Assembly: GCA_000989305.1 (NCBI GenBank)
Contig: LBTB01000001.1
Span: 2,104-66,103, forward strand
Origin: Candidatus Shapirobacteria bacterium GW2011_GWF2_37_20
GTDB taxonomy: Bacteria; Patescibacteriota; Microgenomatia; UBA12405
DNA length: 64,000 bases
Reading direction: 5' to 3'
Part shown: positions 6,654-11,510 of the stretch, piece by piece
How the letters are laid out: every line of letters begins with the position of its first letter
Numbering within the stretch: the first letter of the stretch is position 1
Translations under genes and position numbers: made by a program
The notes under the pieces: generated by a model
The model's input: the letters and a program-made list of their open reading frames with translations, nothing else
Databases searched by the model: none
What the model was told of the DNA's origin: nothing

Positions 6654-7043
6654 TCAAAGTATGTCAGTTAGAGAATTCGCCTGACGGTAAAATTTACTAA
6701 AATCAAAGTAATTTTTTAATTGTTGGCTGAAACTATGATTAATTTCAACGAAAGGATGGGGACAAATTAAATTGTTTGCGTGTTGAATAACGATTCCAAG
6801 ACGATAAGTCTTAGGCTGGCGCTGATCAACTATTTGCAACTGTTTTTTCCATTGAGAATAAAATTTTTCTTGATCTTCGGGAGTAATAGAGCAAATTTTT
6901 TCAGAAAAACAGGTGAGGAGGCGATTTTGGTAAGTTTTTATAATTTCGGGTGTATATTGTCTGCGAGTAAGGATTGGACCATGGATACTATAGTCTTTTG
7001 GCTTAACCTTTGGTGTATTTTCTGGCATTTTGGATTCTATCAC
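6654..7043 (-). CDS. Hypothetical protein
   Basis: 129-aa ORF, start overlaps the release-factor stop. Confidence 0.55.
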
Positions 7044-7756
7044 TTTTGTTCAGCTTCGTCGAGGACGGTGAGTTCAAGGAGAAGGTCGGTTAGATCTCCA
7101 TTGAGACACTTGGTCAGATTAAAATCTTTATCGATACGATGGTCTTTAATTTGGTTTCTGGGATAATTGTAGGAGCGGATTTTGTCGGCGCGCATGGCCA
7201 GACCAACTTTATCTCGGGTGGTGCCCAGTTGAGAAATTTTTTTATCTTCTTCCATTTGCCATAATTTGGCACGAAGTAGATCCATGGCTATGGCTCGATT
7301 TTGTTCCTGGGAGCGTTCCTGACGGACGGAGAAGGTAAGTCCAGTGGGCTTATGAAGAATTCGGACAGCGGTGGAAACTTTGTTAACATTTTGACCGCCA
7401 TTACCTCCAGCTCTGGAAGCAGTCATGTCAACGTCGTCTGGGTTTAAGACGATATCATGAGAGGTTACCTGGGGATAGACAGCGACAGCGGCGGTAGAGG
7501 TTTGAATTCGACCACGTTTTTCAGTGAGAGGGATGCGTTGGACACGATGGGTGCCGGTTTCCCATTTTAGTTGATTATAAGCGTCAAGACCGGAGATTTT
7601 GAGGATGTCGTTATCAATATAGTTGACTTTCCAGCCGACTTTTTCAGCATAACGAATATACATGCGCATTAGGTCCTCGAGCCAAAGGCTAGCTTCAGTG
7701 CCACCCGGACCAATACGGAATTCGAGAATGGCAATATTTGAGTTTGAAATAGGCAT
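7040..7756 (-). CDS. prfA: Peptide chain release factor 1, lacking N-terminal domain 1
   Basis: [15 protein letters not shown] (PxT), [10 protein letters not shown] (GGQ), IRSYNYP; follows rpmE. Confidence 0.9.
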
Positions 7757-8090: not shown

Positions 8091-9332
8091 CTATTTTAAC
8101 ATAGATTTGACGATTTCGTTCTGGGTAAGAGTCTTTTGTTCACCGGTGGTCATATCTTTTAAAGTGACTACTTTGTTGATGGCCTCATCACTGCCAATAA
8201 GAGCGACAAAGGGAATATTCTTAATGGAGGCATATTTAAATTGTTTTCCAATTTTGTCGGCGTCGGGATAAAAAATGGTGGCAATATTATTTTGGCGGAG
8301 AAGGGAAGTGAGCTCTAGGGACTCTTTTTCCGTTTCTGGCCCAAAATTACCAACCATAATTTTAACCTTAGTTTTGGCTAATTTTGGTAATAAGTTGAGC
8401 TCAATAATACAATCAACGATACGATCCAGACCGAGAGTAGTGCCAACGGCAGGAATGTCGGGACCACCTAAAGTTTTTATTAAAGTATCGTAGCGACCGC
8501 CACCGGTAATGGAACCAATCTTTGGTTCTTCGACGTAAGTTTCAAAGATTGTGCCGGTGTAATAATCAAGACCGCGAACCATGGTGGGGTCAAAGGCGTA
8601 ACACCAGTCCGGAAGATTAAAAGATTTAATAGCGGTGAAGACGGCGGCTAAATTTTTATCTGGTTTAGCTACTTTGACATATTTAAACAGGGAATCAATT
8701 TGAAGCTGAGAAAAATCCTTTTCTTTGAGCTCTTTTCTTACTCCATCTTCACCTATTTTCTGGAATTTATCGAGGCTTTGAAGAGTCGAATTTTGATTGT
8801 TGGTGATGCCACTTTGGAGTAAAATATTTTTTAAAACAGTGCGGCTATTTATCCGGATTGAAAACTTTTTAAAATCTAATTTTTTAAGAGCAGTATAAAT
8901 AACGGCGATAATTTCGGCGTCAGCAACGGGGGAACTGGTGCCAAAAGTGTCAATGTCGCACTGAAGAATTTCCCGATAACGGCCCTTTTGAGTATTGTCG
9001 GCGCGCCAGACATTTTGAAGTTGATAGCGCTTAAAGGGGATGGGAATTTCCGGATACATAGCTAAAACTTTTGCTGTTGGTACGGTTAAATCGTAACGAA
9101 GACCGACGCGGCGACCACCCTTGTCGTCGAACATGTAAACAAGTTTTTCGCCCTCGTCTCCGTATTTGCCCATAAGGGTGGAGGCGTATTCTAGAGTGGG
9201 GGTTTCTAAGGGTTCGAAACCAAAATTTTCAAAAGTTTCAATAAAGAGATTTTTGACATAGTTGCGAACGGTCATGGTCTCGGGCAAAAAATCCCGAAAA
9301 CCTTTTAATGTTTGTGGTTTATTATTGTTCAT
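8091..9332 (-). CDS. hisS: Histidine--tRNA ligase
   Basis: [37 protein letters not shown]. Confidence 0.98.
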
Positions 9333-9423
9333 AGTTTGATTTTAACATTGTAATGATTAAGTGATTTTTTGAGGTCTTGTTTTTCGGGAAAAATTTTTTT
9401 TACTAATGTTTAAAATTTTACCT

Positions 9424-9450
9424 AAAAAAACCCCGATTTTACGGGGATTT
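9424..9450 (-). terminator. Attenuator terminator between leader 2 and hisS
   Basis: Minus strand AAATCCCCG-TAAAAT-CGGGGTTTTTTT. Confidence 0.8.
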
Positions 9451-9473
9451 TAAGATTCTAATAAAAAGTTTTT

Positions 9474-9551
9474 TTAGGCCAAGACAACACCCCGCTGGTT
9501 GGTGACCACGGTATGGGTGTGATGAGTAAGATTAAATTTTAAATAGATCAT
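9474..9551 (-). CDS. Putative His-responsive leader peptide 2 (MIYLKFNLTHHTHTVVTNQRGVVLA)
   Basis: 25-aa ORF read by hand, CAT CAC ACC CAT, upstream of a terminator and hisS; ATG shares the terminal A of the tRNA-His CCA. Confidence 0.65.
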   Translation of the reverse strand: MIYLKFNLTHHTHTVVTNQRGVVLA

Positions 9552-9628
9552 GGGGTGGTATGCCGGACTTGAACCGGTAACCTCAGCTTTCACAGAGCTG
9601 CGCTCTAACCAATTGAGCTAATACCACC
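9551..9628 (-). tRNA. tRNA-His (GUG)
   Basis: Acceptor GTGGTAT/ATACCAC with G-1 and C73, anticodon arm CAGCT-CT-GTG-AA-AGCTG, GTTCAAGT T-loop, encoded CCA. Confidence 0.97.
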
Positions 9629-9632
9629 ATAT

Positions 9633-9704
9633 AAAAGAAAAAAACCGCCCTCTTGGCGGTTCTGGTTAATTGATATAGCAATTACCGCCAATTACTTGGA
9701 GGTA
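9633..9704 (-). promoter_or_regulatory. Transcription attenuator (protector/antiterminator/terminator) in front of tRNA-His
   Basis: Segment 1 TACCTCCAA, segment 2 TTGGCGGTA, segment 3 ACCGCCAA, segment 4 GGCGGTT plus T run; segments 2:3 are a perfect 8-bp match. Confidence 0.85.
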
Positions 9705-9739
9705 TGGTGATGGTTTGAAATCACTTTTGCAAATATCAT
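9692..9739 (-). CDS. Putative His-responsive leader peptide 1 (MIFAKVISNHHHTSK)
   Basis: 15-aa ORF with CAT CAC CAT adjoining attenuator segment 1; starts 7 nt after the -10 box. Confidence 0.8.
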   Translation of the reverse strand: MIFAKVISNHHHTSK

Positions 9740-9746
9740 TGAAGAT

Positions 9747-9774
9747 ATTTTATCAGTCAAGAAAAATATGTCAA
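9747..9774 (-). promoter_or_regulatory. Sigma70-type promoter for the leader/tRNA-His unit
   Basis: TTGACA-16 nt-TAAAAT with extended TG. Confidence 0.8.
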
Positions 9775-9804
9775 TGAGTAAAATAGCTTATAATATTGTA
9801 GAAA

Positions 9805-10476
9805 TTAATCCAGGGCGATAAGACGGAGGGCTGGGTAGGTTGAATTTTCGCCATTTGTGTAAATACAGACTATTTTTTGACCTTTTTTAAGATTGGCGAA
9901 TTTTATTAATTTATTTTCCCTGGTAACTATTTCAGTTTTAGCACTAACTTTAATTTGCAGTTCACGATTTTTATTGTTGGTGGGGATAAGGACTAGAATG
10001 GAAGTGGTTGGGGAAATGTCAGCAATTTTTCCCAGGGAAACATTTTTGCTATTTGTTAACTTGGTTGAATCAACGACAATAATTTTTTTAGCAAAAACAA
10101 GGGCATCTTTGGATAAAGTTAGAACCAGGACATCCTGTCCGATTTTGAGATCGCTTATTTTAATCTTGTTTTGTTTTAAATTAACAAAAACGGCATCTTC
10201 ACTAATAGTAAATTTGTGTATATTGGTTTTGGAATCGATTTTTAGATTGGTGTCGTTTATTTCAGTGATAGTACCGAGATAGGCTTTTTTAGGGTTGACT
10301 ACAACATTATCTTGACCAAGTTCCTGAAGTTTTTCGTTAACTTTTTGTTGAATAATTTCCCGTAATTTTTGGATCTCATCGCCGGTGGAGACAGTTGGAG
10401 TTTGGGCGTGGGTAGAAGAAGTAAAAAGGGAAAAAGCTGAAATCAGGACTAATAAGAATATGGATATTTTGGTCAT
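9805..10476 (-). CDS. Secreted hypothetical protein (tandem small beta-barrel-like repeats)
   Basis: Signal peptide ending THA-Q; two similar units ending LKIGQDV / LKKGQKI. Confidence 0.7.
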   Translation of the reverse strand: MTKISIFLLVLISAFSLFTSSTHAQTPTVSTGDEIQKLREIIQQKVNEKLQELGQDNVVVNPKKAYLGTITEINDTNLKIDSKTNIHKFTISEDAVFVNLKQNKIKISDLKIGQDVLVLTLSKDALVFAKKIIVVDSTKLTNSKNVSLGKIADISPTTSILVLIPTNNKNRELQIKVSAKTEIVTRENKLIKFANLKKGQKIVCIYTNGENSTYPALRLIALD

Positions 10477-10934
10477 TCAAGTTTGGTGGTGGAATAAGTA
10501 AGAAAAATTTCAAGGTGACTTTCCTGATCATTTTGATCGATTGAGGTCAGATTAATAACATTATAACCCGGCTCAAGATCAATGACTTGGGAAAAGTTAC
10601 CCTGAGCGTTGGTGTTGAGATGGTAATTTTTTAATGGAGTGGTAATAACAATGAGGCTGCCGGAAGGGGCAACACCCTTAAGGGTGGTTTTGCTGGTACT
10701 AATAATGTCGTTAGTTTGAGGAGAAGTGACTTCGAAACTCGAAGTAGTAGTCAGGGGAGCGGTTGTCGGAGAAAGATTGGGGTCGGTTTGAGAATCCGAA
10801 GAAGGGGTGGGGACAACAATATTCGGAGTATTTTTGTGACTGTTATTATTTTGTTTGATGAAATAAAAAGTGCCGGTAAGTCCGAAACCAATTAGAAGGC
10901 CGAAAATTACGGCTAAAGATAATTCCTTAATCAT
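10473..10934 (-). CDS. Membrane-anchored protein with Ig-like domain
   Basis: N-terminal TM, P/T linker, GNFSQVIDLEPGYNVI motif; second ATG chosen as start. Confidence 0.7.
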   Translation of the reverse strand: MIKELSLAVIFGLLIGFGLTGTFYFIKQNNNSHKNTPNIVVPTPSSDSQTDPNLSPTTAPLTTTSSFEVTSPQTNDIISTSKTTLKGVAPSGSLIVITTPLKNYHLNTNAQGNFSQVIDLEPGYNVINLTSIDQNDQESHLEIFLTYSTTKLE

Positions 10935-10961
10935 AGAGTGGTTTAATGTTATCATAAGGCT

Positions 10962-11510
10962 ATGGAAATTAAATACTTTGAGAACGGTAAAATTTATTTA
11001 AAGGGCAAAAAAGAGAATGTGTGGATAAATCCGGGAAAAGAAGAGTTTGGAGGAAAAAACGGGGAAGCCCGGGTGGTTATTTTTACCGAAAAAGAGAAAA
11101 ACTTTGTTAAATTGGGAGAAGAAAATGATAAAGTAATAATTTGTGGAGTTGGGGAATATGAAATTGGGGGAGTGGAAATTAGCGGAATAAACGCGATGTA
11201 TGCCCTAACCATGGATGGAATAAAAATAGTAATAGTCGGAAAGATTGAGGGTGAAATAACAGAAAAAAAGAAAGAAAAACTGGAGGAGGCTGATGTTTTA
11301 TTGATAGGTATGGGGGCTACAGCGGTAGACATTGCCAAGAAGTCAGCGGCAAATTATATTGTGCCAATTGAGTTTGATGATGAAGAAAAAGAGCTAAAGA
11401 CTTTCATGGACGCTTTTGATAGTGAAAATTTAGAAGCAATTGATAGCCTGAAGGTAGATAAAGAAAACCTACCAGAAGGAGTGGAGGTGGTCTTATTAAA
11501 GACGAAATAA
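10962..11510 (+). CDS. Degenerate MBL-fold-like protein
   Basis: GEYEIGGVEISGI, DVLLI, YIVPI motifs; metal-binding His residues not evident. Confidence 0.65.
   Translation: MEIKYFENGKIYLKGKKENVWINPGKEEFGGKNGEARVVIFTEKEKNFVKLGEENDKVIICGVGEYEIGGVEISGINAMYALTMDGIKIVIVGKIEGEITEKKKEKLEEADVLLIGMGATAVDIAKKSAANYIVPIEFDDEEKELKTFMDAFDSENLEAIDSLKVDKENLPEGVEVVLLKTK

Follow-up and report, generated by a model that had tools for sequence, protein, structure and literature searches.

Leader-peptide attenuation is known for biosynthetic operons and for some genes of aminoacyl-tRNA synthetases. In the enterobacterial hisL leader, a short open reading frame (ORF) with seven His codons precedes RNA segments that pair as 1:2, 2:3 or 3:4 and end in a terminator, and a ribosome stalled on the His codons selects the antiterminator. 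The pheST attenuator of E. coli uses the pheM leader peptide. T-boxes bind tRNA directly, need no translation and also occur in tandem, and these elements are far longer than ~100 nt. Then, could a leader peptide gate the gene of its own cognate tRNA? Here, we describe a probable case in a stretch of 64,000 nucleotides (the window) on contig LBTB01000001.1 of Candidatus Shapirobacteria bacterium GW2011_GWF2_37_20, an ultrasmall member of the candidate phyla radiation (CPR)/Patescibacteria. A leader with three His codons (leader 1) and an intrinsic terminator (terminator 1) stand directly before tRNA-His, and the first gene past the terminator is the cognate tRNA itself. Judged from sequence comparison, leader 1 is most probably a ribosome-mediated transcription attenuator that gates the sole tRNA-His gene of this genome and allows read-through upon shortage of His-tRNA.

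The layout is that of hisL (Rfam RF00514), with the same leader ORF containing a run of His codons, the same 1:2, 2:3 and 3:4 pairings and an intrinsic terminator. However, the target here is the cognate tRNA gene followed by hisS, whereas hisL controls biosynthetic genes; two to five His codons are present instead of seven; and the start is likely leaderless, whereas that of hisL is led by a Shine-Dalgarno (SD) sequence. The logic is also that of the T-box (RF00230), in which the charging state of one tRNA decides between terminator and antiterminator for aminoacyl-tRNA synthetase and amino-acid supply genes, but the present element is too short, conserves an ORF and has no RF00230 match. Predicted leader peptides precede alaS, thrS, trpS and leuS in Streptomyces lividans (PMC8079986), leaderless ones are likewise predicted ahead of cysS and other tRNA-synthetase genes in Deinococcus deserti (PMC4007540), and in bacilli a hisS paralogue and hisZ are predicted to have a His leader (PMC2965389). 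Such leaders and pheM share with the present locus a cognate-codon peptide that gates the charging machinery, and many of those in Deinococcus and Streptomyces are leaderless, as is likely here. The first gene that they regulate encodes a protein, and in the accessible portions of the three reports no tRNA gene is described as a target. In the present locus, by contrast, terminator 1 directly adjoins tRNA-His, and another attenuator comes after it. The leaderless polycysteine upstream ORF (uORF) attenuators of mycobacteria (bioRxiv 10.1101/834739), in the accessible part of that preprint, likewise have a leaderless ORF that is rich in the codons of one amino acid, senses it and controls downstream operon genes, but the amino acid, the phylum and the targets are different. 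Neither a leader-peptide attenuator directly before a tRNA gene nor any attenuator in CPR bacteria was found in the accessible literature, most subscription journals being outside the search. The mechanism is classical, and the cognate tRNA gene as its first target is what appears to be new.

Anatomy, conservation and folding of leader 1

The whole array of putative attenuator, tRNA-His and hisS is encoded on the minus strand of the window, and its coordinates are listed in Table 1. An initial annotation, made from the sequence alone, had proposed a TTGACA-16-TAAAAT promoter and, 7 nt further, a 15-codon ORF with three consecutive His codons, and both were borne out base for base. The -10 hexamer TAAAAT (9752-9747) carries a TG extension at 9755-9754, the promoter matches the consensus at 11 of 12 positions, and it ranks best among the 6 promoter-like sites within 8500-11000. 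The His codons CAT CAC CAT occupy 9712-9704. The four segments of the same annotation were also found where it had placed them: segments 1 and 2 pair with one T.C mismatch, segments 2 and 3 form 8 perfect pairs, and segments 3 and 4 make up the hairpin of terminator 1 (called at 9663-9641, with 9 pairs, 5 of them G-C, and a loop of 5). The T-rich tract of this terminator stops 4 nt short of the G-1 of tRNA-His, in agreement with the distance of about 4 nt expected. From the first T run to the tRNA-His start given by ARAGORN there are 10 nt, and no promoter-like site occurs between terminator 1 and tRNA-His in the window. The leader folds at -31.8 kcal/mol, compared with -18.1 kcal/mol for shuffled sequences (z = -4.26; 0/200 shuffles as good). 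In a covariance scan of 9000-10500 against Rfam (cmscan, E up to 10), only tRNA reached its gathering score; Trp_leader (E 0.074; 23 bits against a gathering score of 41) and Phe_leader (19.5 bits) appeared below threshold, and neither His_leader RF00514 nor T-box RF00230 was matched.

Three His codons by themselves are uninformative, since CAYCAYCAY is common genome-wide, with 131 occurrences on both strands, compared with 41 expected from composition. The combination is another matter. The assembly holds 46 tRNA genes, with tRNA-His present once (ARAGORN), and when these were scanned for cognate-codon uORFs, as the initial annotation had suggested, a cognate run together with an abutting terminator was found at 1 of the 46, namely tRNA-His. 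A genome-wide pattern (a -10 element, 5-8 nt, ATG, an ORF of 6-35 codons and a terminator within 130 nt) gave 32 candidates, and a run of three identical residues occurs only in leader ORF 1. The 30 candidates besides the His leader and the Trp leader described below have no cognate gene context and are probably chance matches.

Leader 1, its promoter and the tRNA are all kept in eight hisS-linked contigs from close relatives, the relatives recovered with hisS being Candidatus Shapirobacteria (CPR/Patescibacteria). A covariance model of leader 1 (R1) has one match per genome in 32 of 104 family genomes, which belong to 9 of 29 genera; at order level the count is 31 of 132 genomes, and outside the family it is 1 of 28. 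It should be noted that R1 undercounts, since divergent members are demonstrably missed. Nine R1-negative family genomes were inspected upstream of tRNA-His, and a leader is clearly recognisable in three of them (MINLSSKSTHHHAN, MINLGKINHHHVN and M(M)FIKSNHHHAH), while five have a plain promoter without leader and one is masked by N. In all 30 fetched loci, tRNA-His(gtg) lies downstream of the match on the same strand, 3-141 nt away.

The coding signature was assessed in 33 distinct leaders from 34 loci. The leader ORF is intact in 33/33, with a length of 11-15 codons, and the prediction that His-codon uORFs would be conserved upstream of tRNA-His in related genomes was confirmed, with at least two His codons in every leader (three in 23 leaders, two in 8, and four and five in one leader each). 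These codons vary synonymously (62 CAT and 32 CAC), near the genome CAT share of 60%, while the other residues of the peptide vary widely, for example MNTLMSTHHHHHQ, MIQQTRLQRHHHAN and MNMYIVSNHHHNAN. As to the geometry, the stop codon lies 1-4 nt ahead of the TGGYGG core of segment 2 in 33/33, the last His codon is 2-3 codons ahead of the stop in 31/33, and an extended -10 is found at 7 nt from the ATG in 28/33, and in one more that also has a second -10-like hexamer. In 18/33 leaders, the gap from the U run to the tRNA is at most 25 nt, too short to hold a bypass promoter, and a further 10 leaders have a longer gap without a TGnTAnnnT motif.

Pairing was counted in a model-based alignment of 29 sequences. 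For 1:2 and 2:3, 93 and 92% of the cells are paired, respectively, compared with 20-64% for slid controls, and a hairpin with a U run closes all 29 distinct leaders. In several relatives the terminator is formed in another register (ACCCGC/GCGGGT), with the overlap with segment 3 kept. In loci L109 and L110, segment 2 is TTGGTGG, which pairs with segment 1 (CACCAA or CACTAAC) and, via G.U, with segment 3, and these two exceptions support both of the predicted pairings.

Three states were compared by folding transcripts cut before the 3' arm of the terminator. Among the 29 leaders, the mean paired share of the terminator 5' arm is 0.29 for the free transcript, 0.82 with the ribosome at the last His codon (A-site plus 13 nt masked), where the arm is paired to segment 2, and 0.15 with the ribosome at the stop codon. 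The 5' arm is paired over 70% or more of its length in 7, 19 and 0 of the leaders in these three states, and the window leader has 0, 6 and 0 of its 9 arm nucleotides paired. When the stretch between the ribosome edge and the 5' arm was shuffled, the share at the last His codon fell from the observed 0.82 to 0.40, and in 29/29 leaders the real sequence exceeded its shuffles. The anatomy, the conservation, the geometry and this folding behaviour are observed.

Two side observations concern the gap behind the terminators. After terminator 1 in L082, L090, L114 and L125, there is a module of 60-95 nt composed of TTTAGGTGAAATTTTGAAC.., an extended -10-like TGnTAAAAT and then a GACTCCGAT..ATCGGAG hairpin, and a degenerate form of the TTTAGGTGAAATTTTGAAC module follows terminator 2 in the window (9333-9423); modules of this type could be an inserted promoter cassette. 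In L110, the gap of 141 nt between terminator 1 and the intact tRNA-His contains an apparent 5' part of tRNA-His (GGTGGTATTAGC...TCAATTGGTTAGA), which is broken by a G+C-rich insert.

Table 1. Features of the His array in the window and of the Trp array elsewhere in the source genome
Feature	Position	Strand	Remarks
Upstream gene	10476-9805	-	223 aa; no Pfam family; no terminator of its own before 9663
Promoter 1	9747..9774	-	-35 TTGACA 9774-9769; 16-nt spacer; extended -10 TGATAAAAT 9755-9747
Leader ORF 1	9692..9739	-	15 codons, MIFAKVISNHHHTSK + TAA; likely leaderless; ATG at 9739, 7 nt past the -10
Segment 1	9696..9704	-	TACCTCCAA; final codons of leader ORF 1; pairs with segment 2
Segment 2	9683..9691	-	TTGGCGGTA; directly after the stop codon; partner is segment 1 or segment 3
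Terminator 1 (intrinsic)	9633..9663	-	stem AGAACCGCC/GGCGGTTTT; loop AAGAG; T-rich tract
Segment 3	9653..9660	-	ACCGCCAA; doubles as antiterminator 3' strand and terminator 5' arm
Segment 4	9643..9649	-	GGCGGTT; followed by T7 CTTTT
tRNA-His	9551..9628	-	anticodon GTG; body 9627-9551, encoded G-1 at 9628; Rfam tRNA 63.9 bits
Leader ORF 2	9474..9551	-	MIYLKFNLTHHTHTVVTNQRGVVLA + TAA; His codons 9524-9519 and 9515-9513
Terminator 2 (intrinsic)	9424..9446	-	CCCCG-TAAAAT-CGGGG + T7; hairpin 9446-9431
Extended -10 of hisS	9339..9347	-	TGTTAAAAT; likely leaderless promoter, 6 nt from the ATG; ~90 nt past terminator 2
hisS	8091..9332	-	histidyl-tRNA synthetase, 413 aa; PF13393 1e-42, PF03129 1e-14
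Trp leader array	G000:C13:445-200 (loci L162/L163)	-	outside the window, in the source genome

Leader 2, hisS and a Trp-codon counterpart

A second leader ORF between tRNA-His and hisS had been overlooked in the initial annotation, which was incomplete rather than wrong: leader 2 and terminator 2, the likely leaderless start and the promoter of hisS itself were missing from it. The CCA of tRNA-His and the ATG of leader ORF 2 have their A in common (9549-9551). Inside the ORF, CGGGG at 9494-9490 repeats the 3' arm of terminator 2 and forms the 5' strand of antiterminator 2. The core of this leader, CAYACCGTGG-N8-20-CGGGG, occurs in 45 of the 104 family genomes, and a reversed control motif in 0. 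Its peptides keep HH-x-H-T-V (HQYH and HRH occur as variants), with synonymous changes in the His codons; in L002, a +1 and a -1 indel restore the frame with the position of CGGGG unchanged. Covariation is seen in a hairpin within leader ORF 2, where both sides have changed at 3 pairs. When 24 distinct leaders were folded in truncated form, the paired share of the terminator 5' arm was 0.42, 0.99 and 0.02 in the three states.

What lies behind leader 2 differs among genomes. Taking the first ORF past terminator 2 in 21 loci with a pattern-found terminator and ORF, hisS was found in 4, an M20 ArgE/DapE-family deacylase in 5 (three scanned, and L148 and L154 assigned only by visual comparison of their N-terminal parts), a protein of the DAP-epimerase fold in 1 and proteins of no family in 11. 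The DAP-epimerase-fold protein (267 aa, L134:1591-2391, relative G018) has as its best NCBIfam matches the histidine racemases CntK (1.9e-19) and HisR (1.8e-17), both below cut-off. Some of the family-less proteins start with MDIYNF..PPAP.EP.RRDGYKW. The M20 peptidase of the relatives was not found in the source genome with one protein query, no family search having been made.

The arrangement TGTTAAAAT-6-ATG, whose 6-nt spacing is the most frequent one in the source genome, is present at hisS in 8 of 9 relatives, and the hisS ATG overlaps the tRNA 3' end instead in L010/L085, L107, L115 and L123. A promoter-like site at 9482-9455, inside leader 2, was rejected as the driver of hisS; transcripts from it would begin so close to terminator 2 that no partner strand for an antiterminator would be included. 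As a side observation, the next ORF starts on the A of the tRNA-His CCA, as CCAUG, for hisS in L085, L107, L115 and L123 and for leader 2 in L084, L088, L092 and L124. Elsewhere in the source genome, the tRNA-Trp on C4 and the tRNA-Glu on C10 have an ORF ATG 4 nt past their 3' ends, and CCA is found at the ARAGORN 3' end of only 10 of the 46 tRNAs. tRNA 3' processing may create near-leaderless mRNAs. hisS is followed by rpmE and by a gene for a release factor. This last gene (7040-7756, minus strand) encodes only 238 aa, and its PCRF match begins at profile position 99; its N-terminal part seems to be missing or encoded elsewhere.

The source genome also contains a Trp-codon counterpart of leader 1 with a likely leaderless ORF, composed of TTGACA-17-TGTTAAGAT, 6 nt, an ATG, the ORF MSLIKCSFYWRNALAQSGDVLMA, a terminator and a second tRNA-Trp(cca) gene, which differs in sequence from the copy on C4. 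Inside the leader ORF, CGGGAGA duplicates the 3' arm of the terminator, and a putative antiterminator is present. The Trp array has matches in ~23 family genomes with E below 1e-13, and at 9 loci with a tRNA-Trp called by ARAGORN the leader retains one or two Trp codons (SFYWR, SLWWR, RSWR, QLWWR). The tRNA-Trp is followed by an amino-acid racemase gene in the source genome, and in relatives by trpB (TIGR00263, 587 bits), trpS (TIGR00233, 284 bits) or an amino-acid racemase gene (TIGR00035, 104.6 bits). The Trp array is an independent replicate of the design in the same genome, and the His device is not a one-off.

Host genome and proposed mechanism

The source assembly has 0.81 Mb in 17 contigs and is 96% complete. 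Among its 638 long ORFs, TAnAAT is sharply peaked 5-6 nt ahead of the first in-frame ATG (40 + 55 = 95 ORFs, against a background of ~3 per position), and SD-like words show no enrichment at any distance genome-wide. The TAnAAT peak together with the lack of an SD peak suggests that the host relies largely on leaderless or SD-independent initiation. His makes up 1.5% of the codons in long frames, with a CAT share of 0.60. Searches of this genome for HisA/HisF (PF00977) gave nothing above cut-off and those for histidinol dehydrogenase (PF00815) gave no match, while both families were detected in 14/14 control genomes. Judged by these two families, the His-biosynthetic genes appear to be absent.

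All of the predictions of attenuation that could be examined at the level of sequence held in the relatives, among them the ORF, the His codons, the stop position, the pairings and the terminator. A mechanism can be outlined in which we infer translation of the ORFs, the transcription start and the response to histidine. Transcription would start at the AUG or 1 nt before it, giving a leaderless 5' end for ribosome loading. Ample His-tRNA would let the ribosome proceed to the stop codon, where it would occlude segment 2 (starting 1 nt past the stop); the 3:4 terminator would form and an RNA of ~100 nt would be released. With scarce His-tRNA, the ribosome would stall at codons 10-12 and cover segment 1, and segments 2 and 3 would pair before segment 4 is made; terminator 1 would then fail and tRNA-His be transcribed. 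If no ribosome were present, 1:2 would form and transcription would terminate. On the same transcript, read-through toward hisS, or in relatives toward the M20 deacylase or the histidine-racemase-like gene, would be controlled by leader ORF 2 (HHTH), its antiterminator CGGGG/CCCCG and terminator 2, the two switches acting in series. The circuit would amount to negative feedback on charged tRNA-His, in which shortage leads to stalling, read-through and more tRNA, with the default being "on" when the tRNA is absent.

Could the same principle be general in these bacteria? A wider picture would be that Shapirobacteria run charged-tRNA homeostats, in which leaderless cognate-codon leaders gate tRNA-His and the second tRNA-Trp and, in series, salvage or charging genes (hisS, the M20 deacylase and the His-racemase-like gene; trpB, trpS and the racemase), with tRNA 3' processing creating the near-leaderless 5' end of the next ORF. 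The tRNA would then be product, sensor input and mRNA punctuation at once. We offer this picture tentatively, as possible but rather doubtful.

Counter-evidence, alternatives and meaning

Several observations weigh against an attenuator that gates tRNA-His as outlined. Five of the 33 leaders have a longer gap with TGnTAnnnT, a possible bypass promoter, and terminator 1 could also serve the upstream gene ending at 9805, which is itself without a terminator. A plain promoter, with no leader, stands before tRNA-His in 5 of the 9 inspected R1-negative relatives, and therefore the device is dispensable. The His codons are few, mostly two or three, and among the 8 leaders with two, two are interrupted (HRH and HPH). 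The 7-nt spacing from the -10 to the ATG differs from the genome mode of 5-6 nt, only 14 of the 638 genes having 7. The stems whose conservation and covariation the initial annotation had proposed to test proved to be conserved, but covariation is weak: no double changes occur in 1:2, a single 2:3 pair has 5 cells with them (U-A, A-U, G-C), and shuffle controls are marginal. The covariation is weak because the cores hardly vary, as expected if every core must pair with two partners; consequently, it is mainly invariance that argues for the 1:2 and 2:3 structures. Folding with segment 1 masked by a ribosome, which had also been proposed, gave the predicted switch in truncated transcripts, but the full-length minimum-energy fold of the window leader and its close kin keeps the terminator. 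Therefore, any switch must be kinetic. RNA data, in the form of contigs of RNA libraries, gave little further help, six runs having only ~6% of the sampled words. In the four runs compared, the contigs lie mainly over the tRNA, with no evidence of start, end or transcription. In run X19, two contigs of 151 nt cover the leader 1 of a relative, and one of them extends beyond the ATG by ~33 nt on the upstream side, into the promoter; unless DNA carry-over or read-through is involved, this is at odds with a start at the AUG. Finally, hisS carries a conserved promoter of its own, so that in the window the second switch would add to hisS expression and not be its sole control.

If the switch is real, its selected target could still be the protein genes behind the tRNA, with tRNA-His as a passenger that serves as a processing site for making a near-leaderless 5' end. 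The linkage of tRNA-His with hisS recurs widely, the genome is rich in leaderless mRNAs, and the two other tRNAs with an ORF ATG 4 nt after the 3' end would fit as well. So would the shared A of CCA, which is found at leader ORF 2 in the window and at leader 2 or hisS in at least nine relatives (L084, L085, L088, L092, L107, L112 with an offset of +3, L115, L123 and L124). However, leader 1 is kept in 8 of 29 loci though unrelated genes follow the tRNA (L094, L097, L098, L102, L105, L106, L108 and others), hisS has the promoter of its own in 8/9 relatives, and in the window no gene other than tRNA-His, a sole copy, lies between terminator 1 and leader 2. For the last reason, the output of tRNA-His would be gated whatever the selected target, and we regard a mere passenger role as unlikely. 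Leader 1 might instead be a translation-independent RNA switch that binds tRNA-His in the manner of a T-box, or histidine or a protein, with the ORF being incidental. The weak covariation, with structure drawn mainly from invariance, agrees with such a switch, as do the nucleotides CATCACCATACC(A/T)CCAA, which are highly conserved in close relatives, and a GUGAU/AUCAC hairpin that joins an anticodon-like GUG to the His codons. This hairpin is lost in distant members, though, where the nucleotides diverge and yet the ATG, the frame, the His codons with their synonymous changes and the stop position are kept in 33/33. Moreover, no T-box or other riboswitch family is matched at E up to 10, where only the sub-threshold Trp_leader and Phe_leader appear, and the Trp counterpart has Trp codons and shares no RNA motif; an RNA switch of this kind is very improbable.

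It may also be asked whether there is any regulation at all. The hairpin could terminate the upstream gene, which runs from 10476 to 9805 and has no terminator of its own before 9663, or a small independent gene, while tRNA-His would be transcribed by constant leaky read-through or from an unrecognised promoter. The HHH-coding 9-mers, at 131 per genome, are frequent enough for such a view, and the element is absent from some relatives. But a conserved promoter stands between the upstream gene and the leader ORF, at least 9 genera retain the His codons, the position of the stop and the three pairings that exclude one another, space for another promoter is absent in 18/33 leaders, and the design is repeated for Trp with Trp codons. 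An arrangement without regulation is hardly credible in the face of this.

For the attenuator reading, which we prefer, the short and self-contained elements are directly testable in cell-free systems. If it is true, leader 1 is a direct homeostat for one tRNA species. As this is the only histidine tRNA in the genome, its synthesis would be tied by negative feedback to the speed at which His codons are read. The array also points to leaderless initiation and to a functional coupling of transcription with translation in a CPR lineage that is uncultivated and reduced, and to a small histidine regulon made up of hisS, the M20 deacylase, the histidine-racemase-like gene and several small uncharacterised proteins that become candidates for His salvage.

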